Made by a program: the position numbers and the translations under genes. The notes beneath the pieces are model-generated. The model was not told the DNA's origin and did no database searches. It was given only the letters and a program-made list of their open reading frames with translations. This document shows, piece by piece, positions 1,595-16,883 of a DNA stretch of 64,000 bases. Positions within the stretch are counted from its first letter, which is position 1. The number at the start of each line of letters is the position of its first letter. Source of the DNA: a virus (lineage: Duplodnaviria > Caudoviricetes); IMG/VR virus record IMGVR_UViG_3300010429_000409, positions 1 through 64,000 of that record; one strand, given 5' to 3'.

Positions 1595-1899
1595 TTTCCC
1601 TCCTGTTTTGGATTCAGCTTCTTTTTGGCCGCCGGGGAGGCAGAAAACCTCAGCTGGCAGCGATCACCAAATTTCATCGGCTTGTTGAGGATGGGCGACA
1701 CCAGGCGCCTTCCCTTGATCTTGCCAAGATAGAAAGCACCAAAACCAGGGACAGTCACCCGTTCCCCTGCGATCACACGCTCGATGATTGACTCAAAAAG
1801 CAGCTTGATGATCTCCCTGGTCTTGGTCACCCGGCCACAATGCTTGCATCGAACAGAACAAGCCCCAGAATCATGGGCCACTTCATTCAGCCCCGGCAT
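1591..1899 (-). CDS. HU/IHF-family histone-like DNA-binding protein
   Basis: GERVTVPGFGAF...LRFSAS HU signature; basic; 102 aa. Confidence 0.85.
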   Translation of the reverse strand: MPGLNEVAHDSGACSVRCKHCGRVTKTREIIKLLFESIIERVIAGERVTVPGFGAFYLGKIKGRRLVSPILNKPMKFGDRCQLRFSASPAAKKKLNPKQEGK

Positions 1900-4800
1900 C
1901 TCTTCCCTCCTGCTCTTCCTTCCCAGCTGAAGGTGTTTTCGCTGAATCTAGCATCCAAATTTTGCTGGATTCAGTCAGGTGCAGACATTTGTTGTAGCTG
2001 TTCCATTTTCGAGCGTACCAGTCTTTGAGCCCATCCAACTGGAGTGAAGCATACATCCCCGGTCTGATGTGTTCCTTCCACATGTCCCAGCAGTATGAAA
2101 AACACAGCACATCGATGTATTCTCCGGACGGGCCAGCCAGTCCAAAAAATGCCATGTCACGCAGGTTCTTGTCTTTCTTGACCCATAGGTGCGTCACAAC
2201 GCCTGTCAGGATCGGCAGCTTCCCTTCATCATGCGCTCTGTCAATCAGCTTGTGGTAAGACGTCATGGCCTTGACTTTGGCATTCTTGCTCTTCCAGGCA
2301 CGCGTCAAGGTCGGATGCTGACCAGTGACCAGACGTTCCCAAATGGTCAGTTCACGCCCGGCCTCGATTCCTTGCCGGAGGGTTTCAATGTTGACCATGT
2401 ACTGTGCTCGCATCGTATCATGCTGCCGATTTGGGATTGCCAACAGGATGACCGGGGTGCCAACTCCGCTGTCCACAATCTCGCGGTAGTCATCAAAGAT
2501 GTCATAATTGATTTTGATTCGATTCTGCTTCCCACTAGCATCCTCCACGTTGATGTTGGCATACCTCTTGCCCCAACCCATCTTTTCCTTTTCCGCCTCG
2601 CTGGGCAGATCGCCCGTGTGGAAATCACCCACCTGGTTGTATTTCACCTCCACAATGATGCCCAGGACATACACACCTTTGTTGTGATAATCTTTGAAAA
2701 ATGACTCGCTGCTCATGTCTACAATTTTGACCTTGATGTGCTTGGATATGAAATCGCTGTAGGCATCAATTGGGTGCTTCCCAAAGGCCAATGGGCTCAC
2801 CTTCGATGCAACCAGGATCTTTTCTTCCTCCGACCAATCAGGCTCCGCCTTGGAAGCCTTCAGCATCCCTTTCAGTTTGACCGCCCAACCGGCCTTCTTG
2901 ATCACGCCCCAAATTTCATCCATGTGCTCAATGAACCACTTGGTGTTTGGGACCAGCGTGTTCAACGCACCCGCGTTTGCCAGCGCCGTGACCACCCGCT
3001 TGTGCACCTTCCTCCCGACTGCCCGCTCAATGAAATCGCACACGTCCCTGTATGGCTGGTGTTCCATGATTTCAGCAGCAGCAGCTTCGCCCACAAATTT
3101 GATATCACACAGCGAACCTCGGATGGCATTGTGCTTCCGGTCGATGCTGAAGCTCATTTTGGATGCAGAGACATCCGGAGGTAGCATTTCAATGTCATGC
3201 TTCTTGGCATCCTTGGCCACCTGTTGCACCCTGATTCGATCTGGTTCCTGCCTGAGCAGGGAGCAATAGAATTCAATGGGATAATGCTTTTTGAGCCACA
3301 TGCACCAATAAGCAATCATCCCATAGGCTGTGGCATGACTCTTGTTGAATCCATAGGACCCAAAGAATGTGATGGCATCCATGATCTTCCCGGCAACTTC
3401 CTCCGTCATGCCCGGGGTGTTCTTCACAGCGCCCTTGATGAAATTTGACCGTTCCTTCCCGATTGTCTCATCGCCCCATTTTTTGGCAATCTTCTTTCGC
3501 AGCGAGTCTGCCGTTGCCGGTGGGAAGCCTGCCACTTCGGTGAAAATCTTGAGCACATGTTCCTGGTACACGATGATGCCCAATGTGTCAGATGTGATCT
3601 GGCTCACCCTCGGATGGAAAGCTGTCTTTTTGATCAATTTTGGGTTCTTTTTCCGCGCCACATATTGTGTGGCCAATCCGCTCCGCGCCGTTCCAGGTCG
3701 ATTCAGCGCTGTCATGGCGGCCACATCCTCAAAATCGGTGAACTTCACACCAGCACAGATTTTGTCCGCTCCTGGTGAATCGTACTGGAACACACCAACA
3801 TAGTCATGTTCTGTGAAGCCAGCCAACACTTCGGGCTCATTGAGGTCCAGGCGCTCTGGGTCAACAAGAATGCCATGGTGCTCTTGGATCATCTCGATTG
3901 CCCCACGGATGACTGTCATCGTCCGGAGGCCCAGGACATCCATCTTCAGAAGGCCCATCGCCTGGATGCCATACATGTCAATTGCACTTACAATTATGGG
4001 ATTTTTTGAATCCCTGGTCTCCAACGGTATCAAATTGTCCAAGGGCTCCGGGCTGCACACGACACCAGCCGCGTGAATCCCCAGGTTCTTTGCCAATCCT
4101 TCCAGCCGTTTTGCGTGGTGTAGCACCTTGGGATATTTGGCATCAAACTCCCGACACACCTTGAACTCTTTGAATGAGTCCTCAATGGTCTGACTCACAC
4201 GCTCATCCCCGCTGGACCGTTCGATGATGCTGGCTGTTACTTGGTTCACCTCCGCGAATGGCACCTCCAACACTCTGGCAACATCTTTCAAGCACTGCTT
4301 CCCTGACAGCTTCCCGACCGTTGCGATCTGGCACACCTTGTCCTGACCATATTTCACCCGGAGGTATTCAATGATCTCTTGGCGCCGAACATCCTCAAAG
4401 TCCATGTCGATGTCTGGCATGTCAATTCGGTCTGGGCTGATGAATCGTTCAAACAACAACTTGTGTTCGATTGGATCAACTGATGTGATGCCAATCAGGA
4501 ATGACACCAAGGAACCAGCAGCCGAACCTCGGCCGGGCCCACAAGCAATCCCTTGGCTCCTGACCCACTGGTACAAGTTGTGAACCAGCAGGAAGTAAGC
4601 CACAAAATTCTGCCTCTTGATGGAAGCCAACTCCATCTTCAATCTGTCAAGATAGATTTGCAGCTGCTGTTCATAGGTGTTCCCCTCCCGCTTTGCGACA
4701 CGCTCCACACGCCCTGGGATGTCACGCCATTCCCATCCTGTGTGGCACAAATGAATCATGTATTGATACTGGTCGGTGTAACCGTCTGGCAGGTCGATGG

Positions 4801-5785
4801 GAGGCATCAGGCACTTGAATCGGTCGATGACTAGATTGCAATCAACGATGTCTGAAAACAGCACGGTGTTGTCAAGGGCTTCTGTGATCACACCGGCCGG
4901 GATGTAGTTGTGGTGCGTCTGGAAGGCTTGGATCATCTCGCCCCGAGTCCTAAAATGGAAGCCTCGATCACTGAATCTGAATCGGTCAGGATTGCTCATG
5001 GTGTTCCCGGTTCCGATTGCCAACAGAACCTCGTGATGCTCCCAATCCTCCGGCTTGATGTAGTGTGCATCTTGAGTGGCAATGATTCTCGCTTTTTTCC
5101 CCCAACGCTTCCACACCTCGATGGTGAACGTGTTGGCCACAACTTGTTCTCGGATGTTGTGCGGCATGATCTCCAACCACAAGTCCTCGCCAAAATAGTC
5201 AAACATCGAATCACCCAAGGCCAGTGCCGTCTTTTCCCGGCCTTGGTTCACCAGTTCATTCAGGATTCCCCCGCAACAGGCTGAACCGATCATCACGCCT
5301 TCACTGTGTTCAAACAGGGTTTGCAGGTCGATGCGTGGCTTGTAGTAGAATCCTTCAATCCATGACTTCGATGACAACTTGTACAGATTGCGCAATCCTT
5401 CAAGATTTTTGGCCCAAGCCGTCATGTGCCAATCGCCCCGGATGCCTCTCAGCTTCTCAATCCTCCTGACTTCATCCTTGAACTCTTGCCTGTTCCTCCC
5501 CTCCGACAATGATTGTTTCAACGCTTCATCCAAGCCCTTTTGGTGCATATCAGCGCAAACGTAGAATTCAATGCCAAAAATGGGCTTGATTTGCTTTTCG
5601 TTGGATTCCAGCAACAGTTGATACATGCCTCTCATCGAGCCATGCTCTGTAAAGCATACAGCCTTGTGCCCACGCTCCTTGGCCACTTGAACATACTCGG
5701 AAATGCGCCCGCACCCGTCCAACTGGGACATGTCGCTGTGGGTGTGAAGATGCACCATCCTGTCAACTTTGTTAGCCATGGGCAC
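1883..5785 (-). CDS. dnaE: DNA polymerase III alpha subunit (family C)
   Basis: PHP HLHTHS, GPGRGSAAGSLV, FERF, catalytic PDIDMD, GIHAAG, YGFNKSH and C-terminal OB folds; 1300 aa; no intein visible. Confidence 0.97.
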   Translation of the reverse strand: MPMANKVDRMVHLHTHSDMSQLDGCGRISEYVQVAKERGHKAVCFTEHGSMRGMYQLLLESNEKQIKPIFGIEFYVCADMHQKGLDEALKQSLSEGRNRQEFKDEVRRIEKLRGIRGDWHMTAWAKNLEGLRNLYKLSSKSWIEGFYYKPRIDLQTLFEHSEGVMIGSACCGGILNELVNQGREKTALALGDSMFDYFGEDLWLEIMPHNIREQVVANTFTIEVWKRWGKKARIIATQDAHYIKPEDWEHHEVLLAIGTGNTMSNPDRFRFSDRGFHFRTRGEMIQAFQTHHNYIPAGVITEALDNTVLFSDIVDCNLVIDRFKCLMPPIDLPDGYTDQYQYMIHLCHTGWEWRDIPGRVERVAKREGNTYEQQLQIYLDRLKMELASIKRQNFVAYFLLVHNLYQWVRSQGIACGPGRGSAAGSLVSFLIGITSVDPIEHKLLFERFISPDRIDMPDIDMDFEDVRRQEIIEYLRVKYGQDKVCQIATVGKLSGKQCLKDVARVLEVPFAEVNQVTASIIERSSGDERVSQTIEDSFKEFKVCREFDAKYPKVLHHAKRLEGLAKNLGIHAAGVVCSPEPLDNLIPLETRDSKNPIIVSAIDMYGIQAMGLLKMDVLGLRTMTVIRGAIEMIQEHHGILVDPERLDLNEPEVLAGFTEHDYVGVFQYDSPGADKICAGVKFTDFEDVAAMTALNRPGTARSGLATQYVARKKNPKLIKKTAFHPRVSQITSDTLGIIVYQEHVLKIFTEVAGFPPATADSLRKKIAKKWGDETIGKERSNFIKGAVKNTPGMTEEVAGKIMDAITFFGSYGFNKSHATAYGMIAYWCMWLKKHYPIEFYCSLLRQEPDRIRVQQVAKDAKKHDIEMLPPDVSASKMSFSIDRKHNAIRGSLCDIKFVGEAAAAEIMEHQPYRDVCDFIERAVGRKVHKRVVTALANAGALNTLVPNTKWFIEHMDEIWGVIKKAGWAVKLKGMLKASKAEPDWSEEEKILVASKVSPLAFGKHPIDAYSDFISKHIKVKIVDMSSESFFKDYHNKGVYVLGIIVEVKYNQVGDFHTGDLPSEAEKEKMGWGKRYANINVEDASGKQNRIKINYDIFDDYREIVDSGVGTPVILLAIPNRQHDTMRAQYMVNIETLRQGIEAGRELTIWERLVTGQHPTLTRAWKSKNAKVKAMTSYHKLIDRAHDEGKLPILTGVVTHLWVKKDKNLRDMAFFGLAGPSGEYIDVLCFSYCWDMWKEHIRPGMYASLQLDGLKDWYARKWNSYNKCLHLTESSKIWMLDSAKTPSAGKEEQEGRDAGAE

Positions 5786-5788
5786 CTT

Positions 5789-6151
5789 TCAAAAAGCATC
5801 TTTCATGCTGGTGTGTAGTTTGTGCGTGGCCAGAACGTAGTTCACAGCCATCTTGAGTTGCTCCGGGAAATCCACTGTCAACATCCACTGCAGATAGCCT
5901 TGCGCGCCTTCAACTATCTCACTCAATTTCTTCCCCTGGTATTTCCCAAAAAACAACTCGGCATCCACAGCAAGTTTGTCTTCAAATATGACTCTGAATC
6001 TGGCCCCAGACATGTTCTGCGGACGCACAGATGCGACCTTCCCCAGGTCCACACTCCCAACCTTCTTGTCTTTGCCTTTCCAAGGCGAGGGCATCCCCTC
6101 AACCTCTTCACCGGCCAACCAGCGTTCCCAATCTTCCCTTGATGGACTCAT
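5789..6151 (-). CDS. hypothetical protein with DUF3820/ExoX C-terminal-like motif
   Basis: FFGKYQGKKLSEI...YLQWM motif; start placed at the ATG overlapping the MT-A70 stop. Confidence 0.6.
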   Translation of the reverse strand: MSPSREDWERWLAGEEVEGMPSPWKGKDKKVGSVDLGKVASVRPQNMSGARFRVIFEDKLAVDAELFFGKYQGKKLSEIVEGAQGYLQWMLTVDFPEQLKMAVNYVLATHKLHTSMKDAF

Positions 6152-6732
6152 CCTTGTCTCTTCAATATCTTCTGCGGATGCCATCCCGGGAACAAGTTTG
6201 AGCATCTGATCATGTCGCCCCAGGCATCCCATTTGGGTTGTTTCACTTGAGCAAACAGCTCAACCCTCGGGAGGTGACCCATCAAACGCACGATGCGCTT
6301 GTGGACTTCCAACGGTTTGCGGGAGTGCTCCGTGACTGGCTCAATGACCACAGAGTGCACGCCCATGTCCACCCTCTTGGGATTCCCTCGGATTGCAAGC
6401 AGACATGGTTCTGTGTTGGCCCTGCTCCAGTTGCCCATCCCCCAATGCATCTTCCCGTTCTTGGTGGTCTTGACCCACAGAAAACCCAAGGTTTTGTAAC
6501 TGAATCCCCAAGCCTCAATCACCTCAAATGCATCATACAACTTTGGCCATGTCGCCCACAAGAACAAGACGCAATTGTCAGCTGCGATTCTTTCGACTGG
6601 CATGGCCAACAGATCGTCCTGCTTCAGGATGTTGTACTTGTAGACTGCCCCACGTTCCCCGGAACAGCTGTCACGATACTGCCAGGGTGGATCTGCCAGG
6701 ATGATGTTGTACAGCTTCCTCCTGCTCATCAT
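6148..6732 (-). CDS. MT-A70 family adenine methyltransferase
   Basis: ILADPPW, LFLWAT, AWGFSYKT, WVK, HSRKP and ELFA motifs. Confidence 0.92.
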   Translation of the reverse strand: MMSRRKLYNIILADPPWQYRDSCSGERGAVYKYNILKQDDLLAMPVERIAADNCVLFLWATWPKLYDAFEVIEAWGFSYKTLGFLWVKTTKNGKMHWGMGNWSRANTEPCLLAIRGNPKRVDMGVHSVVIEPVTEHSRKPLEVHKRIVRLMGHLPRVELFAQVKQPKWDAWGDMIRCSNLFPGWHPQKILKRQG

Positions 6733-7343
6733 TCCTCCGACGACACCAACTTTTGGTTACGCAGGCACACATCCACAATCCTGTTGACGCCTTCCTTCAC
6801 ACCGATTGTCCCTGTATTGATCATCATCTTGGGGAGTTTCAGGTGTCGGAACACCTCCTGAAACATCCTGTCCAACTTCTCACGCTGGACCTTGGTGGGC
6901 TTCCACCCGTCGCCACGCCCCTTGGCAACAGCGTGGTCACAGACCAACCACACATACAGGACATTGACCCCGCCTGCTCGGATGATTTCTTGCCACACTT
7001 CTGCCATTTCTTGGCAGACGTTCTTGCTTTTGTACAACGTGTCCCATCTGCCAGAACCCAACTGGCCATAGGCCAGTGCAGATGGAAGGCTCCGATCAAG
7101 AACAACCTTGGCTCCGGTCGCTGCCAAGAAATCAGCCGCAAAGAAATCCTCGATGTGGGTGTTCACCTCCACTCCAAACTTCGCCAACCTTTCCTCGGGC
7201 GCTTCCTCGTTGACATTCTTCCGATGGAGGTCTGTGTTGCCATGCCTGAATGGCCGGAAGATGGGGATGCCAAGCACAGATGCCAACTCTTTGGCATAAG
7301 TGCTTTTGCCAACCCCATTGGAGCCTTCCAGGATGATGATCAC
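6729..7343 (-). CDS. deoxynucleoside monophosphate kinase (thymidylate kinase-like)
   Basis: IIILEGSNGVGKST P-loop and VVLDRSLPSALAY (DR motif). Confidence 0.8.
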   Translation of the reverse strand: MIIILEGSNGVGKSTYAKELASVLGIPIFRPFRHGNTDLHRKNVNEEAPEERLAKFGVEVNTHIEDFFAADFLAATGAKVVLDRSLPSALAYGQLGSGRWDTLYKSKNVCQEMAEVWQEIIRAGGVNVLYVWLVCDHAVAKGRGDGWKPTKVQREKLDRMFQEVFRHLKLPKMMINTGTIGVKEGVNRIVDVCLRNQKLVSSEE

Positions 7344-8605
7344 CGTGCCTCCTTCAGCGCCTTGTGCGTCTCATCCAACGCCCACAGCGCCATCTGGATG
7401 TCGCTGTGCGACACGTTCAACGGAGGTGTGAACCGGATAGGACCAAACTGCCTGTGCGTGACCAACGACAAGCCATGATTCCTTCCCTCTGTGATGAACT
7501 GAAAGCCATCATAGCCACCCGCCTCATAGTCAGGCGTGAATGCATTGAGCAACCCAGCCCCATCAAATTCCTTGATCCAAGGCATGCTGCTCCACGTCTG
7601 CCTGATGAACTCGCCCTTGTTCCTGACGAGGTGGATGTTGGCATCCAACCATTGGTACAACTTGATGGCCAAATGGCAACACAGCAGCGTTCCTCCGAAG
7701 GTGTTGAAATGGACGCCAGGCGTGAATGCTCTGGCAATCTCATCCCGTGCCAACATGCAGCTCATCGGGAGGCCCATGGCAATTCCCTTTGACAGAGTCA
7801 TGATGTCGGGCTTCACCCCACACCCTTGCCAGCTGGCAAAATGCCCGGCCCGTCCATTCCCAGCCTGGACATCATCATAGATCAACAGCACCCCGTTCTT
7901 GCTTCTGATGGAATCCAGATGCTCCCAGAACTCGGCCGGATAGGTCTTGACCAGGTTGTTGCCCAACACCGGAGCCAGGATGATGGCGGCCACAGCATCC
8001 CATTCGGGCTCCTTGCCCTCGTGCTCCACCCCGTCTGTGACCACCTGCCAGAATGTCTTGTCATCCAGCACACCAAATCCCTTCGGGATTGGCCCAAACC
8101 CATGCCTGTGGTATGGGCTCACACGAGGGTCGCTGGCGGCCATGGCAAATCCTGTCCTGCCGTGGAAGTTGCCGTTGATGGTCAGGATGACATGGCGCCT
8201 CGGGGCAATCATGTCGAAAGGCACATTGAGGTTCCTGGTGTAACCACGCTCTTTGTCCCACCAGAACTTACGAGCAATCTTGATGGCTGCCTCATTGGCC
8301 TCGGTTCCGGAATTGGCAAAGAACACCCTGTCCATCCCTGTCCGGTCGCAGATGATCTCAGCGGCATCCCATCTGGTCTGGTGCGGATACACGTCCGGAA
8401 GCCTGTGCGGGTTGCCTGTTGCCAAGAAAGAATGGATTGCTTGCAAAAACTCAGGCGTGTTCATCCCCATCGAACACACCCCTTCATCACCCCAAAAGTC
8501 CAGCAGAGGTTCCCCTGCTGCTTGGGTGATGGTTGCCCCCATCCCCTGCTTGACCACCAACGGCATCCGCTCGATGTTCCCCATCAACCTTCTGTTCATG
8601 TCCAT
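7340..8605 (-). CDS. class-III PLP-dependent aminotransferase (ArgD/ornithine aminotransferase-like)
   Basis: FFANSGTEANEAAIK, FHGRT, LIYDDVQAG, PDIMTLSKG (PLP lysine), NTFGG and IRFTPPL. Confidence 0.9.
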   Translation of the reverse strand: MDMNRRLMGNIERMPLVVKQGMGATITQAAGEPLLDFWGDEGVCSMGMNTPEFLQAIHSFLATGNPHRLPDVYPHQTRWDAAEIICDRTGMDRVFFANSGTEANEAAIKIARKFWWDKERGYTRNLNVPFDMIAPRRHVILTINGNFHGRTGFAMAASDPRVSPYHRHGFGPIPKGFGVLDDKTFWQVVTDGVEHEGKEPEWDAVAAIILAPVLGNNLVKTYPAEFWEHLDSIRSKNGVLLIYDDVQAGNGRAGHFASWQGCGVKPDIMTLSKGIAMGLPMSCMLARDEIARAFTPGVHFNTFGGTLLCCHLAIKLYQWLDANIHLVRNKGEFIRQTWSSMPWIKEFDGAGLLNAFTPDYEAGGYDGFQFITEGRNHGLSLVTHRQFGPIRFTPPLNVSHSDIQMALWALDETHKALKEAR

Positions 8606-8625
8606 GGCTTCCTCCGTTCAGACGT

Positions 8626-9570
8626 TCAGATGCGCTTGCCTGTGTAGGGGTCACGTCCCCAAAAAGCCTTGTATTGTTCCGCCCGCTGTTTCATCTCAGC
8701 CATCATGGGGATTTCGGATTTGATGAGGGTCGGTTGTCCGCCATTCAACACGTGGTGGTGCCAGTGCAACGGGCAAGGCGGCAGGCAATCATCACCCACC
8801 AACCTGCGGCGGCACTCTTCCTTGTACACGCATCCGTTGAAAGTGTCACCTTTCAAACATGGCGGAGTGACCAGGTTCCGGAACACCGGATGGATCTTGG
8901 TGGCCAACTCGTTGACCATCCCTTCGATGACCGGCCCCCACACACCAAGCTGAAGAATCCAGCAGCCACGCTTGGAAATGATGTGCTGGATGGCGCCCAT
9001 GTTGAGCTTCCAACTGATACGATGTTGGGCCCCCAACGGGATCAACTCCCTGGCATCCTCCATGGGGATTCCAGCATCCACCATGTTGTTGTAGGCACTT
9101 TCGATGAGTCTCATGGTCTCATCGAATCTGGCCCGCGCTTCAGGATTCTGCTCAACCGTCTGCGGCAGGCGATATTCCCCCAGCGTGGCAAACGTCCCCA
9201 TGTCCTGGATGCGCATCGACTGCGACCACCACGAGGATTCAGACAGATCAGGGATGCGATCCACCATCACGATGTCGCTGCCAAGGCGCTCCGGCGATGG
9301 CTTGACGCCAATCCTGTGCCGCACAGCCTGTTCACGCCAGCTGACACTTACACCCTCCAGCATGAACACAAAGTCGATGTGTTCCCCAACCGGAATGCCC
9401 TGGGCCACAACAGCCTCGAACAATCCCAACACCTCGGCCTTGGGCACATGTTGTTTGATCTCGGCAGGCAACCGGAGCGCATCTGTGCTCTTGGAAGCCT
9501 CCCAAACGCTGTACACCGTTTCCAACGGGTCCTGGGTCCACGACAACAGAGTGACTTTCACCTTGCTCAT
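8626..9570 (-). CDS. thyX: divergent FAD-dependent thymidylate synthase ThyX-like protein
   Basis: EHIDFVF, QAVRHR...SQSMR, GIPMEDARELIP and a Cys-rich C-terminus; start moved to MSKVKV (GAGGTGG RBS). Confidence 0.8.
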   Translation of the reverse strand: MSKVKVTLLSWTQDPLETVYSVWEASKSTDALRLPAEIKQHVPKAEVLGLFEAVVAQGIPVGEHIDFVFMLEGVSVSWREQAVRHRIGVKPSPERLGSDIVMVDRIPDLSESSWWSQSMRIQDMGTFATLGEYRLPQTVEQNPEARARFDETMRLIESAYNNMVDAGIPMEDARELIPLGAQHRISWKLNMGAIQHIISKRGCWILQLGVWGPVIEGMVNELATKIHPVFRNLVTPPCLKGDTFNGCVYKEECRRRLVGDDCLPPCPLHWHHHVLNGGQPTLIKSEIPMMAEMKQRAEQYKAFWGRDPYTGKRI

Positions 9571-9578
9571 CTTCCACC

Positions 9579-10499
9579 TCACTCGGCACAATGCCGGTTT
9601 GTTTCCAGCCATTCCAATATCTCGCCCCAATCCTTCACCCTGTGAATCAGTGGGTGGGTTGGAATCGTCCTGTTGTCAGGGGTGTCAATCAGAAGCACCC
9701 TGACCCCAATGTTCACCAGCTCCAATGCGTGCTTGTCCCTGTCCTCAACAAAGGCTATCGGCCGGGCCGGGAAAATGTGCTCATAAATGGCTTCAGACTT
9801 GTCCTTGTTGAACAGCAACAAGTCATGCTTCACCCCATTTTCCCGGAGCCACGCCAAGGTGTCTGAATACACCCTCTTGTATTGCCAGTGCGGTCTGGCT
9901 GTGATGAGAGCAATTTTGAATCCCCAGCTGGCTACCTTGTCCAATGCTTCCTTTGCACCCGGGATGACTGGCAAGGTTCTGAATCCACCATTTTTGTAAT
10001 AACGCTCTTTGAGCCCTTCCAGCGCCAGCACCATCTGGTCATTCATCGGGGCGCCATTCCTCGCCTTGGCCAATTCGGCCTGAAATCCTGAGAGGTCAGC
10101 AATACACCCATCAAGATCAGAAATCAACAGCTTGGTGTTCGCTTGCAACTCCATCGTTGCACTATCGGCCTTTGAGCCCACCTCGTGGCTCTTGTGTATG
10201 AACGCATCCAGCACTTCCTCCGGCTGGATGTTGAACACTTGCGCAATTGAAATGGTGTACTTCATGATGTCCACCACTTCATCAATCACGTTCCCCTTTT
10301 CCACCGGCCGTTGCTTCAAGATGTGGTCCTTGTGGCTGGCAACTTCCCTGGCCAACTCTTGGGCTTCCTCGTACAGCCCCAAACACAGGTCCTTGAGCAG
10401 CTTTTCGCGCTCATGGATAGGCAACACCTCGGGGTCAAGGCCAAAGCCCTGTTGCTGATGGCGTTGCAGGTCCCAAATTGCCTCAAGCATATCAGTCAT
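9579..10499 (-). CDS. MazG/all-alpha dUTPase-like pyrophosphatase fused to a HAD 5'(3')-deoxyribonucleotidase
   Basis: N-terminal EEAQEL...DEVVDIMKY (ExxE...ExxD); C-terminal DLDGCIAD, ITAR, K and FVEDR HAD motifs I-IV. Confidence 0.8.
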   Translation of the reverse strand: MTDMLEAIWDLQRHQQQGFGLDPEVLPIHEREKLLKDLCLGLYEEAQELAREVASHKDHILKQRPVEKGNVIDEVVDIMKYTISIAQVFNIQPEEVLDAFIHKSHEVGSKADSATMELQANTKLLISDLDGCIADLSGFQAELAKARNGAPMNDQMVLALEGLKERYYKNGGFRTLPVIPGAKEALDKVASWGFKIALITARPHWQYKRVYSDTLAWLRENGVKHDLLLFNKDKSEAIYEHIFPARPIAFVEDRDKHALELVNIGVRVLLIDTPDNRTIPTHPLIHRVKDWGEILEWLETNRHCAE

Positions 10500-11461
10500 C
10501 CAAGCCACCTCCTGGCCAACGCTTCAGCGCCATCCAGCACCGTATCGGCAGTTGCTCTTGGGTCCCACTGGGCAAATCTCCCCAGCGGCGCCACATTATC
10601 AGGCCATTGCGGCTGAGATGGAAGAGGCAGCAGATGCCCTTTCATCCCAACACGTATCTGTTTGATATAATAACCATCTTGGAAAATGAATTGTAGGTCA
10701 CTCTCCATTTTGGTGTTGTCCAATTCCCCATTGGCTTCAACCATGTATCCAAGCCCAGCCGGACTGAATCTGTGAATGTAGTCTGCTGGCGTGTACGGGG
10801 TGTACACAAAGTCCCATGAGGCATAGCGATCACGCTCCGGAACCACCCATGCGATGTTCAACTTCATCGCAAATCCTTCTGGCAGGTACCATGGGCAGAT
10901 TCTTTTCAATATCCACATCGGAATGGTTACGATCATGGCATCGTACTGGAACCAACCTCCTGGCTCAACTCTGACTCTGCTCTTGGTCACTTCAACAGCT
11001 TCGCCACGGATGATCCTTGCGCCCTTGGACAACTGATCAACCAATGACTCAAAATCAGTCCGGATGGCGTGCCTGGCCTTGGAGCTGGTTGGGTCATTCA
11101 TAGCCTTCTTGGTGAAAGCACCCGGTTGGGTGCGACGTGTTTTGGAATAATGATCACGCTGCACCCGGGCCGCTTCCTCCGATGGCATTTTGTTGAGTGC
11201 TTGTGGATACGGCAGAACGCTTCCCCTGAGCAAGATGCCTCCATTCAGACGGTAGGATGAAAATGGCAATCCCATTCTGCTGACCATTCTGACCATGCCA
11301 TCCGTCCTGTGGATGTACTTCAACCCGCCTGAGATGAACTCCCCTCCCAGCCGCCCAGGCTCAACAATGACCATTTCGGCCGGAGCCGTTCCCCTGTGCT
11401 GTTGGAAGGCATGATGGGCAATGAGGCCTGAGATTCCTCCGCCGAGGATGACAACCTTCAC
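10496..11461 (-). CDS. FAD-dependent oxidoreductase (Glf/amine-oxidase-like Rossmann fold)
   Basis: N-terminal VVILGGGISG, E...LGG, YDAMIVTIP and C-terminal LGRFAQW; GTG start overlaps the upstream TGA. Confidence 0.8.
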   Translation of the reverse strand: MKVVILGGGISGLIAHHAFQQHRGTAPAEMVIVEPGRLGGEFISGGLKYIHRTDGMVRMVSRMGLPFSSYRLNGGILLRGSVLPYPQALNKMPSEEAARVQRDHYSKTRRTQPGAFTKKAMNDPTSSKARHAIRTDFESLVDQLSKGARIIRGEAVEVTKSRVRVEPGGWFQYDAMIVTIPMWILKRICPWYLPEGFAMKLNIAWVVPERDRYASWDFVYTPYTPADYIHRFSPAGLGYMVEANGELDNTKMESDLQFIFQDGYYIKQIRVGMKGHLLPLPSQPQWPDNVAPLGRFAQWDPRATADTVLDGAEALARRWLG

Positions 11462-12321
11462 AGCTTCACCTCCGGCATTTGGAATGCGCCCTTTTCGCAC
11501 ATCCTCTTCAGCTGTTCAGCCAACCAAGTCAGCCCTCCCAACTCCATGCTGGTCAATCTCGATTTGAAGCTGGTTGGATAGGTCAAATTGGATGGTGTGT
11601 ACCTGCTTCGATCATGTTTTGACATGTATTCAATGAACTCGTCCTGCAACCATGGGAGGTCCACCATCAATGTCCTACTCAACAACTCAGGGCGCATGCT
11701 TGCAACTGGTATCCTCCGCCCGCCCCTTGGAGCGCAATACACAGCCACATAACCTGATGACTTGCGTCTGTCCACCCAAAAGAATTGGCCTGGCCTTGGA
11801 GCATATCCGACTGCTGGAAGCCTTCCAGGGAAAACTCTGCCCAGCTGTTGTAGGAAGTGGACCATGAGCGCCAAGGCTTCCTGCTTTCTGGCTGCCACAG
11901 CCTGACTCTTGCGTCGCCAACGCCTTGCCTTGCGCTTCCTCCGCTTGCTCCTTGTGCCCTCCTGCTGCTCGGAACCTTCAGCTTGGCCCTCGGCCTGGGT
12001 TGCCTGTCCGGATGCCTCCTGCGCATCGCCTTGTGCTTTTTGGATAGTGGCTCTCAGGTCTTTCAGAAATAGCAGGAATGTCCTGTGGTCAACGTGGATC
12101 GATCTGCTGTATGCTCCATCACCGTTGTCTATTGTCTCAATGTGCTCTTCCCTTTTCTCACCACTTTCCTCGCAATAAGTGCTGAAGGCAGAACAATATG
12201 GTGACCAAGCGCATTTCAGCCGGGCAACCTTGTCTGTCGCCCGGCTGTCACCATCGCACTCAGGATCACTTTTCGAGTACAGCCCCAAGCACAGGGGCAT
12301 TCTGTCCGCCCCGCCACTCAT
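11458..12321 (-). CDS. hypothetical protein (N-terminal Cys motif, basic central patch)
   Basis: 287 aa ORF filling the operon; CLGLY..SDPEC...KCAWSPYC and an RRKRKARRWRRK patch. Confidence 0.6.
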   Translation of the reverse strand: MSGGADRMPLCLGLYSKSDPECDGDSRATDKVARLKCAWSPYCSAFSTYCEESGEKREEHIETIDNGDGAYSRSIHVDHRTFLLFLKDLRATIQKAQGDAQEASGQATQAEGQAEGSEQQEGTRSKRRKRKARRWRRKSQAVAARKQEALALMVHFLQQLGRVFPGRLPAVGYAPRPGQFFWVDRRKSSGYVAVYCAPRGGRRIPVASMRPELLSRTLMVDLPWLQDEFIEYMSKHDRSRYTPSNLTYPTSFKSRLTSMELGGLTWLAEQLKRMCEKGAFQMPEVKL

Positions 12322-13273
12322 TCTTCCGCAATTCCCCTATCAGTTTGTTGTACCATTGAATTGGAAGCCTGACACGGATTCTCCCTGTGCCGGCAACCTC
12401 GCCAGTGTTTGGATTGAATCGCCCTTCAACCACAATGGTAAAGTGCTTGGCCGCCCGACATCCCATCACGATGGCGCCCCAAGCATATTGGATCACAACC
12501 AACTTCCGGGCCAATCCTTCTTTGATGGCAATCTTGGGATTTTTCAAGGTCAAACCGCGCCGGATTGCTGTTGTTCTGACAAATTCTGCATCATTCCATT
12601 TGGCGCTCGTGTGGACAAGGGGTCGGCCCATGATGATAGACTCTTCCTGTGTTCCCCAGATTTCGCTGAATTCCCCTACCAAATCCATGAACTTGAGCCT
12701 GATCTTAGACAGAATCCAGTCAATTTGGTTCTTGGTCATATTGAATCGTCTGCACAATTCCACATTGCTGGCACCATCAGGCCCGAGGTCCAAACGTGCC
12801 TCGAACACCTTGCGTTCCTCTGCACTCAGACGTTCCGCCAGGCGCTCCTTGAATTGACACAGCATCCTCGCCCGCTCCTGCTCAATCAACGCTTCCTCGG
12901 GCGATGTTGCGCTGGGGTGGAAGCACTCACTGAGTTCATCCAGGCTCTCAGGTCGCATCGGAGTTGGAGCCCATCCAGCCCCATCCCAAACCATCACATG
13001 CGGCATCCGGCTTTTGGCAAGCATGCTCGCCATCAGGCTGTTGTAGGTGTTCTCCATCACCTTGCTGATGAATGCCTCGGCCGTTCCCCTCTTGGGGTCG
13101 AATGAACCGTGTGCAATTGAAGACAGAAGGGCAATCCGACCTTCTTGCACGGCATCATCAAAGTCAATTGGTCCGTTCCAGCGCAGCCGTCTGGCCCGAG
13201 TCTTGATGATGGGCAGGTGCTCTTCCTCCGCCTGCCTGTATTGCTTCTTGATCTTGTCGTCGCACCGCTTCAC
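12266..13273 (-). CDS. phage sigma-70-family RNA polymerase sigma factor with C-terminal extension
   Basis: Region 2 DFDDAVQEGRIALL...FDPKRG; SPEEAL; region 4 LSAEERKVFEARL...SNVELCRRFNMT HTH. Confidence 0.8.
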   Translation of the reverse strand: MKRCDDKIKKQYRQAEEEHLPIIKTRARRLRWNGPIDFDDAVQEGRIALLSSIAHGSFDPKRGTAEAFISKVMENTYNSLMASMLAKSRMPHVMVWDGAGWAPTPMRPESLDELSECFHPSATSPEEALIEQERARMLCQFKERLAERLSAEERKVFEARLDLGPDGASNVELCRRFNMTKNQIDWILSKIRLKFMDLVGEFSEIWGTQEESIIMGRPLVHTSAKWNDAEFVRTTAIRRGLTLKNPKIAIKEGLARKLVVIQYAWGAIVMGCRAAKHFTIVVEGRFNPNTGEVAGTGRIRVRLPIQWYNKLIGELRKNEWRGGQNAPVLGAVLEK

Positions 13274-15174
13274 GCAACCCTCCGCTTGCCGCCCACCAGC
13301 TTGTCCTTGAGCAGCTTCAAAACAGACTCAGCGATCTTGTCCATCTCTCGAATCCAGATGTGATCTGAACCATTTTCCTTGGTGTAGTATTCTCTCACTG
13401 AGCTGCCGTTGTTGCCCAGCCCGATGCCCAGAACCTCGATGCCTGCTGCGACCACCTTGCGAATCATGTCCACCAGGTGCTGCGCCTCCAGCTCCAGGTT
13501 GCAACCGGCAGCCGGACGCCCGTCGCTGAGCACCAGGATCATCTTCCGCGCCTCCGGGCGCTTGGCAATGCGCTTGGCAGCCGCAATCAGCGCATCGCCA
13601 TCGCTGTTGTTGCCACCACCATCCATGGCGGAGGCCAGGCCATCCCGCGCCTTGGCGAGTTTTTCATCAAACGTCTTGAACTCCTCGATGCGCAGAGCCC
13701 AGCTGCGACCCGTGCAACCTTCCCTCACACCCACGAGGTTGTGGAATCCGAGGATTTCAAACTTGATGCCCAGTGATTCCAGAGTCTCAGCAACCGCAAT
13801 CGCAGTCCTCTGGGCCGCATGGGCGCCAGTTCCGCTGTTTTCGCTGCTGGACATTGAGCCTGAAAGGTCGATTAGCAGCGTGATGGCCGTGTCAATCTTG
13901 TCGCCTTCCCGCTTCTGTGCGAAAACAAACTTGTTTCCAGCCCGGAGGCTGTGGAGGTTTGATGAGTCCAACTCGCCGCTTTCCTGGTCAGCCTCCCGGC
14001 GGCAAGCGGTCTTGGCCTTGATCAGCTGGGACAGCTTGGCCCGAAGGGTTCCAATCTGGCCACCCAGGGTGGCCTTGATGGCGTTGTACTTCCCAACGCT
14101 GGGCAGCGCCTCGGGCTTGCCAGTGCTATCGGCCTTGAGCACTTCAGGGCTGACCACGTACTTGCCATCACAGATGGCCCGTTCCATGGCCTCGGTGGAC
14201 TTTTCTTCAATTTCCTTCCGCAGCGCATCAGCCAGGTCGGTCACATTGGCGTCATCATCGGAACCGTCCAGTGCCTTCTCAGCCTCGCTTGGCTCGCTGG
14301 GAACCGTTCCCTTGGCATCCTCGCTGTCAGAGGTGCCGTCCTGCTTGTCACCTTCCTCCGCCTTGGACTCGCCCTTGGCCTGGTCACCCTCGGTGCTCCC
14401 CTTGTCATCCTTGCTGCCCTCACCCTCACCCTGCTCCTCACCCTCACCCTGCTCCTCACCCTCGCCCTGCTCCTCACCCTCGCCCTGCTCCTCACCCTCG
14501 CCACCCTCGCCCTGCTCCTCACCCTGCTCCTCGGCCTGCTTCTTGGCCTGCTCCCGCTCCTGCTGGGCCTGCTTGGCCTCGGCATTCAGCTTGTTGATCT
14601 TCTCCACGATGCGCTTGGCAACAGCCAACGAGTCGTGGCCATTCTTGGCATTCTGCGCAGCCTTGATCTCGGGCTCAAACGCCTTCAGCAACTGGACCAT
14701 GTCACCAGCCCAGCTGGTGTCGAATCCACGGGCAGCAGCGATGAACGCGCAACCAAACTTCCGCCAGAAGTCCATCTGCTTGCCGCTGTTGGCCCGAATG
14801 AAGTGCTTGTTGAGCTTCTGGAGGTTCTGAGCAACGCCAATCAGTTCCCGGCTGGCGTCCATCTCAATCCTGATGTCCTCAACCACGTTCATCATGAGCT
14901 TGGTCTTGTTGTCGCGGAGGGTTCTCACGAGGTCAAGCGGGGAAAGCTGACCAGCTGCGTGCGCCTTCTGCTCTTCCCGGACGTGCCAAGTTTCGTGGTC
15001 AAGTGCGCCGTCCAGCAGTTCCTCGGGGAGGTCATCCGCATTTGCGGGGAGGGTGATGGTGTTGCCATCGGTGTAGCAGCCCTTGCCGAACCGGACGGTG
15101 ATGCCCCAGGTCCTGCTGAGGGTCCTGGCCACCTTCTCCATCCTGCTTTCCAGCTTGCTCAGGCTCCGATTCAT
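13270..15174 (-). CDS. CobT-like vWA-domain protein with N-terminal HExxH domain
   Basis: GALDHETWH...NVVEDIRIE; acidic linker; MIDAS LIDLSGSMS, N.DG.A and VLSDGRP. Confidence 0.85.
   Translation of the reverse strand: MNRSLSKLESRMEKVARTLSRTWGITVRFGKGCYTDGNTITLPANADDLPEELLDGALDHETWHVREEQKAHAAGQLSPLDLVRTLRDNKTKLMMNVVEDIRIEMDASRELIGVAQNLQKLNKHFIRANSGKQMDFWRKFGCAFIAAARGFDTSWAGDMVQLLKAFEPEIKAAQNAKNGHDSLAVAKRIVEKINKLNAEAKQAQQEREQAKKQAEEQGEEQGEGGEGEEQGEGEEQGEGEEQGEGEEQGEGEGSKDDKGSTEGDQAKGESKAEEGDKQDGTSDSEDAKGTVPSEPSEAEKALDGSDDDANVTDLADALRKEIEEKSTEAMERAICDGKYVVSPEVLKADSTGKPEALPSVGKYNAIKATLGGQIGTLRAKLSQLIKAKTACRREADQESGELDSSNLHSLRAGNKFVFAQKREGDKIDTAITLLIDLSGSMSSSENSGTGAHAAQRTAIAVAETLESLGIKFEILGFHNLVGVREGCTGRSWALRIEEFKTFDEKLAKARDGLASAMDGGGNNSDGDALIAAAKRIAKRPEARKMILVLSDGRPAAGCNLELEAQHLVDMIRKVVAAGIEVLGIGLGNNGSSVREYYTKENGSDHIWIREMDKIAESVLKLLKDKLVGGKRRVA
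14418..14532. repeat. coding tandem repeat (about 18 bp units, EEQGEG) in the vWA protein linker
   Basis: Repeated CCCTGCTCCTCACCCTC(A/G) units. Confidence 0.9.
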
Positions 15175-15198
15175 CGTGTTGACCTCCTGCCCCTTCCC

Positions 15199-15384
15199 CT
15201 ATGCGAAAACCATACCGTTTCAATTCAAACCACGCACCTCCGTGTAACAATTACAAATTTGCGATTTCATGCCATGTGCACCAGAATCAAAATTGTAACC
15301 TTTTTTCGTACCATTTTTGGTTGAAATCAATCTTTTCAAACACTTCAAACCAGGAAAAGTTTTCCGTGACCCAGAAATCTTTTC
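15199..15384 (-). promoter_or_regulatory. AT-rich upstream element, copy A (before the vWA gene)
   Basis: Boxes of 31 bp (15199-15229), 29 bp (15288-15316), 16 bp (15350-15365) and 13 bp (15372-15384) are identical to boxes in 16670-16869. Confidence 0.7.
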
Positions 15385-15394
15385 CTGGTTTGAA
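15344..15394 (-). terminator. 16-bp perfect hairpin just downstream of the AAA+ gene
   Basis: TTCAAACCAGGAAAAG (15344-15359) pairs with CTTTTCCTGGTTTGAA (15379-15394); 6 nt after the stop; weak U-tract. Confidence 0.55.
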
Positions 15395-15400
15395 CCCATC

Positions 15401-16633: not shown

Positions 16634-16669
16634 TTTCAACCTCCAGAGTTTGAATACCTGTTCCTGGTT

Positions 16670-16870: not shown

Positions 16871-16883
16871 AGCATTTTCAGCC

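Follow-up and report, generated by a model that had tools for sequence, protein, structure and literature searches.

Gene content and layout of the locus

The 94.5-kb genome of an uncultured sludge phage carries a set of five enzyme genes ahead of its DnaE gene. Within the window analyzed here (the whole stretch of 64,000 nucleotides), these genes occupy positions 6729-11461 of the minus strand, co-oriented and tightly packed. They encode a flavoprotein of 321 aa (10496..11461), recognized by a GxGxxG motif and its AF2 fold; a fusion of MazG with an NT5C-type HAD domain (9579..10499; Pfam MazG, dUTPase_2, and NT5C); a ThyX-like protein of 314 aa (8626..9570; Pfam Thy1, 72 bits); an ArgD-like class-III aminotransferase of 421 aa (7340..8605; PF00202, E = 5e-61); and a thymidylate-kinase-like P-loop dNMP kinase of 204 aa (6729..7343; PHROG 761 “thymidylate kinase,” E = 4e-13). 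An earlier note had described five adjacent, co-oriented genes with overlapping start and stop codons, and the coordinates and strand agree with it throughout. Three junctions overlap: flavoprotein/MazG-HAD by an ATGA read directly in the sequence and, according to the coordinates, aminotransferase/kinase (GTGA type) and kinase/MT-A70 (ATGA type) by 4 nt each. The two other junctions inside the block are gaps of 8 and 20 nt by their coordinates. Promoter-like and terminator-like sites in the region 1500-17000 were not more frequent than expected by chance. The operon is covered at 100% identity by contigs from an activated-sludge RNA library, which is a weak hint of expression.

Three minus-strand genes follow the block, encoding an MT-A70 DNA adenine methyltransferase (6148..6732; PF05063, E = 1e-30; PHROG 359), a small ExoX-C protein (5789..6232; PF20600, E = 5e-7), and DnaE, the DNA polymerase III alpha subunit (1883..5785; PHP, DNA_pol3_alpha, finger, and HHH_6 domains). 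The ExoX-C protein is present in many related loci, often immediately upstream of DnaE. The order of MT-A70 and polymerase after the five genes is as the earlier note had it, but MT-A70 lies outside the conserved module: tblastn found no match in 75 related loci, and its position between the kinase and the polymerase is peculiar to this genome among those examined. Elsewhere, the genome encodes a dCMP deaminase, whereas neither a ThyA nor a trimeric dUTPase was found in it, and many of its ORFs have no recognizable family. Among 31 further ORFs outside the module, no Pfam or PHROG family named 5-hmdU DNA kinase or aGPT-Pplase was matched; the lack of a ThyA-type hydroxymethylase and of a 5hmU DNA kinase, claimed previously, is thus borne out for these searches.

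On the other side of the block lies a conserved 287-aa protein with no assigned family (11461..12321, minus strand); the stop of its gene overlaps the flavoprotein start. It gave no usable match in Pfam, PHROG, or Atlas. In most related loci, tblastn places homologs with 20-33% identity immediately ahead of the flavoprotein; every relative that has this region keeps the two together, even the one without the other four genes. We treat this protein as context, its membership in the module being uncertain.

Conservation of the module among viral contigs

A search for co-occurrence in phage genomes had been named beforehand as a check. The genes for the flavoprotein, MazG-HAD, ThyX-like protein, aminotransferase, and kinase were found together adjoining DnaE on about 29 IMG/VR contigs, whose DnaE proteins show 34-66% identity (only 34-45% for some clades). 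Gene order within the module is shuffled on some of them. Because the same set is syntenic on so many contigs, the arrangement is far beyond chance. In a complete 104-kb relative, the ThyX-like protein, aminotransferase, MazG-HAD, and kinase genes are all missing together, an all-or-none loss; of the five, the flavoprotein alone is retained, still accompanied by the 287-aa protein. The five genes form a unit that is conserved beside the DnaE gene of the phage. In the literature, we found no paper describing this module.

Features of the five enzymes

The flavoprotein has no match in Pfam or PHROG. Its family is mostly viral and unnamed, with more than 100 homologs on phage-sized contigs; remote homologs are encoded upstream of a HAD gene in L058, Gordonia phage BirthdayBoy, and Pbunavirus LBL3. 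At the N terminus, the sequence shows the GxGxxG motif of an FAD Rossmann fold, and at the C terminus the motif GRFAxWDPR; the AF2 model (pLDDT 92.9) places the fold in the UGM/PPO/amine-oxidase superfamily, with Foldseek in agreement on the superfamily. The best VIA-align match is UDP-galactopyranose mutase (UGM) 4dsg (Z 26.8, rmsd 3.0, 315 residues), and protoporphyrinogen oxidase (PPO) scores Z 23.4. The label “FAD oxidoreductase” given in the earlier note is putative, being based on motif and fold. A flavin-dependent oxidation of an alcohol to an aldehyde fits less well, as the nearest folds are those of UGM and PPO and not that of an alcohol oxidase.

MazG-HAD joins an all-alpha NTP pyrophosphohydrolase of the MazG type (residues ~1-115) to an NT5C-type HAD 5'(3')-deoxyribonucleotidase (residues ~116-306), and its EExxE...D and DxD/T/K/D motifs are invariant in an alignment of 14 homologs. 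Among solved structures, it comes closest to cytosolic and mitochondrial 5'(3')-deoxyribonucleotidases and to small MazG proteins. A HAD nucleotidase fused to an NTP pyrophosphatase would reverse ordinary dTTP synthesis, unless its substrate is a nucleotide that the phage excludes. By analogy with the dTTPases of PhiW-14 and of phage 15599 (gp18) (PMC13458397; PMC5977210), MazG-HAD may have such a target; for gp18, dTTP exclusion has been shown (PMC13458397).

The ThyX-like protein resembles canonical ThyX (T. maritima TM0449; TIGR02170) in its fold, its RHR motif, and S-x-R; the equivalents of R78/H79/R80, S88, R90, R147, and R174 are kept, and all dUMP-binding arginines are among the retained residues. 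It differs in scoring only 50 bits against TIGR02170 (cut-off, 88 bits), in having lost the equivalents of H53, Y91, and R165, in an insert of 22-24 residues after RHRIG that splits the RHR...SxR signature, and in a C-terminal extension of ~90 residues with four invariant cysteines. At E<1e-30, its family numbers 220 representative clusters, and inteins are present in some. The protein is a predicted flavin-dependent pyrimidine C5 one-carbon transferase. Proteins of the same subfamily, with the insert and the four cysteines, occur in PolA phages that lack the aminotransferase, MazG-HAD, and kinase; the ThyX-like protein is probably able to work on its own, for example in dTMP synthesis.

The best sequence relatives of the aminotransferase are ArgD proteins (PDB 2eh6 and 2ord; E about 1e-41; ~30% identity), with which it shares the PLP lysine and the DxVQ, FHGRT, and TFGG motifs. 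Alignments to solved ArgD structures and of 13 homologs show that it retains the catalytic Lys and Asp. In contrast to ArgD, the canonical EPxQGEGG loop (EPIQGEGG in ArgD), including its gating Glu, is replaced by (A/S)P(V/I)(L/F)G(N/H)(N/H), an invariant Arg stands at the position of the canonical Gln, and a 15-residue insert is added. The protein scores below every NCBIfam equivalog cut-off. Its subfamily, known only from phage contigs, numbers over 120 clusters, none of them on a contig longer than 116 kb; every relative with at least 31% identity lies inside the module, and matches with at most 28% identity are found in unrelated contexts. No nucleotide-specific feature could be demonstrated in it.

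The kinase matches Pfam Thymidylate_kin weakly and has the P-loop, DR, and S..AY motifs (alignment of 13 homologs). A hydrophobic residue replaces the Arg that follows FAAD in thymidylate kinases, a residue that contacts thymine O4 in thymidylate-kinase structures. The kinase gene is present together with the aminotransferase gene on every contig where this could be judged, and neither occurs in the other phage lineages examined, among them those that have only the flavoprotein, HAD, and ThyX-like proteins. This pairing fits an aminotransferase whose product needs its own dNMP kinase.

Comparison with known DNA modification systems

T4 (5-hmdC) and SPO1, PhiW-14, and SH-Ab 15599 (5-hmdU) combine a dNMP hydroxymethylase, a dCTPase or dTTPase/dUTPase, a dNMP kinase, and their own polymerase. 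As in these systems, a C5 one-carbon transferase, a MazG-type pyrophosphatase, a dNMP kinase, a dCMP deaminase, and a polymerase are encoded here, so that the four roles in base replacement named in the earlier note (C5 synthase, destruction of the canonical dNTP/dNMP, dNMP kinase, and polymerase) can all be assigned by homology to proteins with intact catalytic motifs. However, the synthase is of the flavin-dependent ThyX type and not of the ThyA type, the pyrophosphatase carries a fused 5'(3')-deoxyribonucleotidase domain, and the class-III aminotransferase and the UGM-like flavoprotein have no counterpart.

PLP and FAD enzymes also take part in post-replicative hypermodification (PMC8989533). 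That toolkit consists of 5-HMUDK and aGPT-Pplase/AADT/DADT, with a PLP decarboxylase, a radical-SAM isomerase, or an MnmC-like FAD lyase; the lyase of PaMx11 gives 5-aminomethyl-dU. Here too, thymidine with an amine-bearing C5 substituent is the likely end result, but the PLP enzyme is a transaminase instead of a decarboxylase, and the flavoprotein is UGM/PPO-like, not DAO/MnmC-like as in PaMx11. Unlike in the post-replicative systems, the presence of a dNMP kinase suggests chemistry on free nucleotides.

The flavoprotein, ThyX-like, and HAD trio is shared with pbunaviruses and Gordonia lamboviruses. In Pbunavirus LBL3, gp63 is the homolog of the flavoprotein (hhalign, 93.7%), gp57 that of the ThyX-like protein (hhalign, 98.6%), and gp55 a HAD fusion with an N-terminal DxD phosphatase motif similar to that of MazG-HAD; all three are encoded beside the LBL3 DnaE. 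Neither the aminotransferase nor the kinase is encoded in pbunaviruses, and their ThyX-like protein has RTR where that of the module has RHR. Pbunavirus DNA (F8, 14-1, and LBL3) contains a hypermodified thymidine in TG context, to which no genes have been assigned (Yee et al. 2025, PMC12191111). This modification looks sugar derived and context specific (PMC12191111), and a pool enzyme alone is insufficient to explain it.

Possible functions of the module

Our preferred reading, which we hold tentatively and at somewhat less than even probability, is that the operon tailors a pyrimidine before replication and provides DnaE with a noncanonical thymidine analog, probably an amine-bearing one. 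We infer all steps of this route. The phage dCMP deaminase would convert dCMP to dUMP, and the ThyX-like flavoenzyme would add a one-carbon unit at C5. The substituent would then be brought to the aldehyde level, by the ThyX-like enzyme itself or with assistance from the UGM/amine-oxidase-like flavoprotein, and the ArgD-like aminotransferase would turn the aldehyde into a primary amine, e.g., 5-aminomethyl-dUMP. The thymidylate-kinase-like enzyme would produce the diphosphate of the modified nucleotide, and MazG-HAD would degrade the competing canonical pyrimidine dNTP to the nucleoside. Of the interpretation in the earlier note, the conserved unit beside DnaE and the four roles have stood; the particular reactions (hydroxymethylation by ThyX, flavin-dependent oxidation to an aldehyde, and then transamination) have found no direct support.

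Pyrimidine tailoring is favored by conservation of the module across clades with distant DnaE proteins, the joint loss of four genes in the 104-kb relative, the confinement of the close aminotransferase relatives, with their own active-site signature, to the module, and their constant association with a kinase lacking the Arg after FAAD. The deoxyribonucleotidase-type HAD on the pyrophosphatase, the dCMP deaminase in a genome with no ThyA or trimeric dUTPase, the related trio in pbunaviruses with hypermodified thymidine, and, weakly, the RNA-library contigs point the same way. On the other hand, the flavoprotein persists where the other four genes are missing, and its fold class oxidizes C-N or C-C bonds or isomerizes sugars, alcohol oxidases being atypical. 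The aminotransferase shows no nucleotide specificity, and short-read assembly of this DNA went without trouble.

Several of the remaining objections are at the same time arguments for ordinary thymidylate supply and housekeeping with canonical virion DNA, which we consider somewhat less probable than tailoring. Here, the MazG domain would be a dUTPase/dCTPase yielding dUMP, the ThyX-like protein a variant thymidylate synthase, perhaps using another reductant via its four-cysteine site, and the kinase a dTMP kinase. Host-nucleotide turnover, as by Dmp of phage T5, would account for the HAD nucleotidase, and the flavoprotein and aminotransferase would be auxiliary metabolic genes traveling with the replication module. 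A dUTPase-like MazG, a ThyX with intact dUMP-binding residues, and a kinase with thymidylate-kinase motifs do form a coherent dTTP route, the more so as a dCMP deaminase is present, the genome has no second thymidylate synthase, and the ThyX-like subfamily stands without these partners in PolA phages. Likewise, MazG, HAD, and ThyX-like genes adjoin DnaE in cultured Gordonia phages, for which modified DNA is unreported. However, plain dTTP supply leaves unexplained a divergent aminotransferase subfamily that exists only inside the module and always with the kinase, and a dUMP/dTMP-type nucleotidase fused to the pyrophosphatase would be futile beside dTMP synthesis. The subequivalog score of the ThyX-like protein with its lost H53 and Y91 equivalents and the modified thymidine of pbunaviruses also speak against it.

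Post-replicative hypermodification is improbable in our view. The ThyX-like protein would make a reactive C5-substituted dUMP (e.g., 5-hmdUMP) that is incorporated, the aminotransferase, perhaps helped by the flavoprotein, would supply an amine or sugar-derived donor, and an unrecognized transferase, for which the many ORFs without a family leave room, would attach it to DNA, on the model of putrescine, diaminopropane, and amino acids in PhiW-14, SH-Ab 15599, M6, and ViI. Class-III aminotransferases produce diamines and omega-amino compounds, and the families matched by the phage enzyme include diaminobutyrate and putrescine aminotransferases. Known thymidine hypermodifications draw on host or phage amines (PMC13458397; PMC8989533), and the TG specificity of the Pbunavirus mark implies a DNA-level step. 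Against this stand the absence of a ThyA-type hydroxymethylase, the lack of matches to the named 5-hmdU DNA kinase and aGPT-Pplase families in the 31 ORFs, and the fact that the aminotransferase always comes with a dNMP-type kinase, which points to a nucleotide-level product.

Chemistry on the sugar, in which MazG-HAD would take a dNTP to the nucleoside, the flavoprotein its 5'-hydroxyl to the aldehyde, the aminotransferase (LipO, the uridine-5'-aldehyde aminotransferase of nucleoside-antibiotic pathways, being a precedent) the aldehyde to a 5'-amino-5'-deoxynucleoside, and the kinase would phosphorylate it, with either phosphoramidate linkages in the DNA backbone or a small inhibitory or signaling molecule as the outcome, would use every enzyme in one linear route, explain the flavoprotein-HAD adjacency conserved in four lineages, and suit a flavoprotein whose nearest fold binds a uridine nucleotide-sugar, but we consider it very improbable: it is purely inferential, we know of no natural 5'-N DNA, Pbunavirus and Gordonia phages have the flavoprotein-HAD pair but no aminotransferase, and the ThyX-like protein is left with no role beyond dTMP supply.

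Pyrimidine tailoring remains our preferred reading. With DnaE as the presumed consumer of its product, the gene set probably makes an unusual, perhaps amine-bearing, thymidine substitute.

A minus-strand module in the replication region

The source record of the window is complete (94.5 kb, with direct terminal repeats), the window being its first 64 kb, and sequence words of the region are present in anaerobic-digester and activated-sludge runs. The genes of the region all lie on the minus strand. From high to low coordinates, the replication block comprises a UvsW-like helicase, an unknown protein, an IstB-like loader, DnaB, a primase, an AAA5 (MoxR/CobS-like) ATPase, a CobT-like VWA protein, a sigma-70-like factor, a 287-aa unknown protein, the five module genes, MT-A70, a small ExoX-C protein, and DnaE (1300 aa). 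The module, also entirely on the minus strand, encodes a flavoprotein (10496-11461; GxGxxG motif and predicted fold), a MazG-HAD fusion (9579-10499; PF03819 and PF06941), a ThyX-like protein (8626-9570; PF02511), a class-III aminotransferase (7340-8605; PF00202), and a thymidylate-kinase-like kinase (6729-7343; P-loop, DR, and S..AY motifs).

The earlier note described these genes as adjacent, packed, and co-oriented, and each of them is indeed real and intact. An ATGA overlap at the flavoprotein/MazG-HAD junction was read in the sequence; by coordinates, 4-nt overlaps exist at the aminotransferase/kinase and kinase/MT-A70 junctions, and the remaining gaps are 8 and 20 nt. Because the junctions are tight or overlapping and the scanned region is not enriched over chance in promoter-like or terminator-like sites, the five genes look like one operon. 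In an activated-sludge RNA library, contigs with 100% identity to 6648-8502 and 8561-11076 give a weak hint of expression that may instead reflect DNA carry-over. At 6274-6292, the MT-A70/ExoX-C overlap, one RNA-library contig of low depth differs by three G>A changes in a 19-base stretch, likely a strain variant or error.

Two features of the block accompany the five genes. The CobT-like VWA gene and the AAA5/CbbQ-type ATPase gene (13270-16639), between primase and sigma factor, are kept in most relatives and missing in a complete relative, G001, and in some module-bearing contigs. The 287-aa protein (11461-12321) has no recognizable family, and evolves fast (20-33% identity). In most relatives, G001 among them, its gene immediately precedes that of the flavoprotein, with its stop overlapping the flavoprotein start; an Atlas search with it gave nothing usable.

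Distribution of the module and its parts

IMG/VR was scanned with alignment profiles, which yielded 18 loci for the flavoprotein, 33 for the ThyX-like protein, and 42 for the aminotransferase; a scan with the single flavoprotein sequence gave no matches, whereas the alignment-based scan succeeded. Co-occurrence in phage genomes, the check proposed in the earlier note, was borne out by tblastn of the window proteins against these loci: about 29 contigs combine MazG, HAD, ThyX-like protein, aminotransferase, and kinase, with DnaE after them. These include distant clades with DnaE merely 34-45% identical, and the order of the ThyX-like, aminotransferase, and kinase genes differs between contigs. 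The genes that tblastn missed are the flavoprotein or the kinase. In locus L058, the missed flavoprotein was detected as a diverged homologue by hhalign (probability, 80%; GRYAQWDP motif), and in locus L063 the diverged homologue of the missed gene was recovered by reading ORFs. L058 also carries, directly after the kinase, a sulfotransferase-family gene (12488-13261; Sulfotransfer_3, E = 6e-8), which hints at a possible further tailoring step in that lineage.

Among IMG/VR loci, aminotransferase relatives of at least 31% identity are all inside the module, and matches of at most 28% identity have unrelated surroundings, for example in giant-virus bins. In 50,697 GenBank phage records, neither the operon (blastn) nor the flavoprotein or kinase (tblastn) had a match; the aminotransferase matches there proved to be bacterial contaminants or generic ArgD genes. 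The complete 104-kb relative G001 lacks the ThyX-like protein, aminotransferase, MazG-HAD, and kinase, all four together, and retains the 287-aa protein, the flavoprotein (33% identical), and DnaE in the same place. The earlier note had also placed MT-A70 alongside the base-modification genes, an association that did not hold up, as MT-A70 is found in this genome only among the relatives compared.

Stand-alone ThyX-like proteins of 47-53% identity, with the same insert and cysteines, exist in PolA-type phages devoid of the aminotransferase, MazG-HAD, and kinase; thus, the ThyX-like subfamily is not module specific. In these phages the ThyX-like gene is preceded by genes of the nucleoside-deoxyribosyltransferase family and for a YfbR-like HD 5'-deoxynucleotidase (directly upstream at L028:750-3832 and L057:8549-10897, where the transferase gene is of the nucleoside-2-deoxyribosyltransferase family). 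The L028 ThyX-like protein has an additional C-terminal region of about 185 residues with no family match. From gene neighborhoods, the recurring neighbor of ThyX-like genes is a predicted dNMP phosphatase of one or another fold. The picture is of a widespread putative core, consisting of the ThyX-like protein, a dNMP phosphatase, and usually the flavoprotein, to which the aminotransferase and kinase would be the add-on pair that defines the module.

ThyX-like protein

The ThyX-like protein scores 72 bits against PF02511 (Thy1; cut-off, 24.8), and a fold search with it returned ThyX structures only; its score against the TIGR02170 equivalog, 50.3 bits, is below the cut-off of 87.9. The contiguous RHRx7SxRY signature is absent, since RHR and S-x-R are split by an insert of 22-24 residues between RHRIG and WSQSMRI. 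Ile replaces the signature Tyr, and the position of Thermotoga maritima H53 is occupied by Gly or Arg. When positions were mapped to T. maritima TM0449 via a HMMER alignment, the dUMP-binding arginines (equivalents of R78, R90, R147, and R174) were found as R84, R120, R174, and R201, invariant in 13 homologues. The family retains R78/H79/R80, S88, R90, R147, and R174 and lacks H53 (folate/NADPH site), Y91, and R165. A C-terminal extension of about 90 residues contains four invariant cysteines, one of them two residues past the R174 equivalent. Aligned with stand-alone ThyX-like proteins, those of the module showed no residues specific to them. A Thy1-family hydroxymethyluridylate synthase has been hypothesized for phage SP-15 only (PMC5977210).

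The family comprises 220 clusters at E<1e-30 and has inteins at about three sites. Inteins are typical of important replication-linked genes. Those with HNH endonuclease domains occur in homologues P0121, P0122, P0123, P0136, P0162, P0205, and P0253, and one intein site immediately precedes the invariant Cys located after the R174-equivalent arginine.

Aminotransferase and kinase

The aminotransferase matches PF00202 (E = 5e-61), with K273 (the PLP-lysine), D244, and Q247 invariant. It is ArgD-like and falls under every curated cut-off, including that of TIGR00707 (ArgD; 219 bits versus 410). The EPxQGEGG substrate loop of ArgD is replaced by APVLGNN, with equivalent variants in all 13 homologues. 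Two clades were recognized, at 56-65% and 33-40% identity to the window protein; in both, the EPIQGEGG loop, including the gating glutamate, has become (A/S)P(V/I)(L/F)G(N/H)(N/H), and an invariant Arg occupies the position of ArgD's Gln.

In the kinase, G7, G12, K13, D83, R84, and S88 are invariant and A91 and Y92 nearly so, and the P-loop, DR, and S..AY motifs are thereby present. It matches PHROG 761 (E = 4e-13) and scores under the curated cut-offs of TIGR00041 (19 bits versus 83) and PF02223 (18 bits versus 27). In thymidylate kinases, the Arg after the (F/Y)AA(D/S) motif contacts the base; in all 13 homologues here, FAAD is followed by F, L, I, or V. The altered residues of the ThyX-like protein, aminotransferase, and kinase would fit changed substrates, without identifying them. 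A split polynucleotide kinase/phosphatase (Pnkp), formed by kinase and HAD, was rejected because the kinase carries the DR and S..AY motifs of thymidylate kinases, the HAD resembles NT5C, and there is no ligase.

MazG-HAD fusion and flavoprotein

Both halves of the fusion keep their catalytic motifs. The MazG half scores 23.9 bits against PF03819 (cut-off, 22) and contains the EExxE...ExxD motif, with E43, E44, E47, and D76 invariant or nearly so in 14 homologues. The HAD half scores 34 bits against PF06941 (cut-off, 24.8) and keeps all four HAD motifs (D127, D129, K233, and D252 invariant and T199 nearly so in the 14 homologues); its best PDB matches are the cytosolic and mitochondrial 5'(3')-deoxyribonucleotidases cdN and mdN.

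The flavoprotein, with more than 100 homologues on phage-sized contigs, has an N-terminal GxGxxG Rossmann motif and no Pfam or PHROG match, Pfam GLF included. Its AF2 model (pLDDT, 92.9) was placed by Foldseek in the superfamily of amine oxidases, protoporphyrinogen oxidase (PPO), and UDP-galactopyranose mutase (UGM). The top VIA-align match is UGM 4dsg (Z, 26.8; rmsd, 3.0; 315/321 residues aligned), and PPO, the next family, is 3.4 Z units lower (Z, 23.4). The features of the UGM fold, an FAD Rossmann motif and a C-terminal GR..Y/W motif, are present, with GRFAxWD conserved; the protein falls about 60-150 residues short of UGM length. The earlier note had cast it as an oxidase of an alcohol to an aldehyde, and this is the weakest link of that proposal: its modeled fold class and its linkage to an HAD phosphatase suggest that it may do something other than alcohol oxidation. 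A tetrapyrrole/cobalamin set made up of a PPO-like flavoprotein, a HemL-like transaminase, and CobT/CobS-like genes was also rejected, because the aminotransferase is ArgD-like, the module occurs without CobT/AAA5 in several contigs, and the G001 flavoprotein occurs without them.

Other modification-related genes and comparison with known systems

To our knowledge, every characterized route of thymidine replacement or hypermodification starts from a ThyA-type hydroxymethylase and adds amines on the DNA polymer. Known thymidine hypermodifications begin with a ThyA-type dUMP hydroxymethylase, the amines being added on DNA by 5-HMUDK and aGPT-Pplase-type transferases, and their tailoring enzymes are PLP decarboxylases and an MnmC-like FAD lyase (PMC8989533; PMC13458397). 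The absence of such a hydroxymethylase, noticed earlier in the window, extends to the whole phage: PF00303 (ThyA) had no match in six frames of the complete genome, with controls detected. The genome has no trimeric dUTPase. Among 31 further, larger ORFs from outside the module and the structural region, none received a Pfam or PHROG name for a 5-hmdU DNA kinase or aGPT-Pplase; many ORFs of the genome match no family.

Outside the window, a dCMP deaminase gene (86293-86658) is clustered with genes for a UDG-superfamily protein and a 5'-3' flap endonuclease (86221-88535; L021:6221-8535), and RecA and SbcCD-like genes lie at 89.9-94.2 kb. The deaminase does not track the module cleanly: this genome, G002, and G004 have it, and G003, G005, and G001 do not.

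The flavoprotein-HAD arrangement recurs in two other lineages, represented here by named phages, and both lack the aminotransferase and kinase. In Gordonia phage BirthdayBoy, gp71 and gp72 are the adjacent pair, with MazG (gp82), DnaE (gp81), and a ThyX-like protein (gp85) close by. In this phage (Lambovirus; OR475261.1, 47888-58216), a short flavoprotein homologue overlaps the HAD phosphatase, and a methyltransferase, a second oxidoreductase, MazG, and a 398-aa ThyX-like gene surround DnaE. As a member of a cultured actinophage genus, BirthdayBoy may be a tractable model. Pbunavirus LBL3 has a homologue of the flavoprotein in gp63 (hhalign, 93.7%) and of the ThyX-like protein in gp57 (98.6%); its gp55 is an HAD fusion and its gp53 is DnaE. 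In Pbunaviruses F8 and 14-1, the nucleosides 362 U and 390 U take the place of about a quarter of T, in TG context, and the genes are unassigned (PMC12191111). If a ThyX-based transaminase route exists, it would supply candidate genes for the thymidine hypermodification of these therapeutically used phages.

Interpretation and significance

A full-text literature search found no paper describing the five-gene set; the module is real, widespread, and undescribed. Judged by its gene families, it is a putative variant of phage nucleotide-pool remodeling for DNA base replacement. A pre-replicative pyrimidine tailoring pathway is the best-supported reading, which we hold with somewhat less than even confidence. 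The aminotransferase would act on a nucleotide-level aldehyde, its product would require a private kinase, and MazG-HAD would remove the canonical competitor. Three observations argue for this: (i) the aminotransferase is confined to the module context, (ii) it is paired with a dNMP kinase, and (iii) a nucleotidase of the dTMP type would be a futile companion to simple dTMP synthesis. In the main rival, ordinary dTTP supply, a MazG dUTPase, ThyX, and thymidylate kinase would work together and the other genes would be unrelated passengers. Such a supply, to which we give perhaps one chance in three or slightly less, is favored by three facts: ThyX-like genes also stand alone, dUMP-binding residues are retained, and the flavoprotein survives in a genome devoid of the other four genes. 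The pyrimidine tailoring pathway in its most specific form would be the first in which an amine-bearing thymidine analogue is made at the nucleotide level, with a ThyX-type flavoenzyme and transaminase yielding, e.g., 5-aminomethyl-dUMP, a private kinase, and a pyrophosphatase-nucleotidase that removes dTTP; we regard this form as tentative, and it may well be wrong. A donor-supply role for post-replicative modification is improbable. Sugar-side 5'-aldehyde transamination is very improbable. A literature check on its precedent, the uridine-5'-aldehyde aminotransferase LipO, gave nothing usable.

Phage DNA modifications determine which restriction, CRISPR, and glycosylase defenses work and are a source of biotechnology enzymes. 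Should ordinary dTTP supply be correct, three uncharacterized enzyme subfamilies are still defined, namely, a ThyX variant in which four cysteines are invariant, an ArgD-like transaminase known from phages only, and a compact UGM-like flavoprotein; annotation pipelines at present give them the wrong names thymidylate synthase, acetylornithine aminotransferase, and hypothetical protein. Should the tailoring pathway be correct, the ThyX-based, transaminase-dependent free-nucleotide route would represent a novel enzyme chemistry, and well over a hundred genomes of uncultured phages of sludge, soil, and water would encode it; if its product is the amine-bearing analogue, a whole environmental phage clade would replicate with a cationic pyrimidine replacing T, via enzyme types new to DNA modification.
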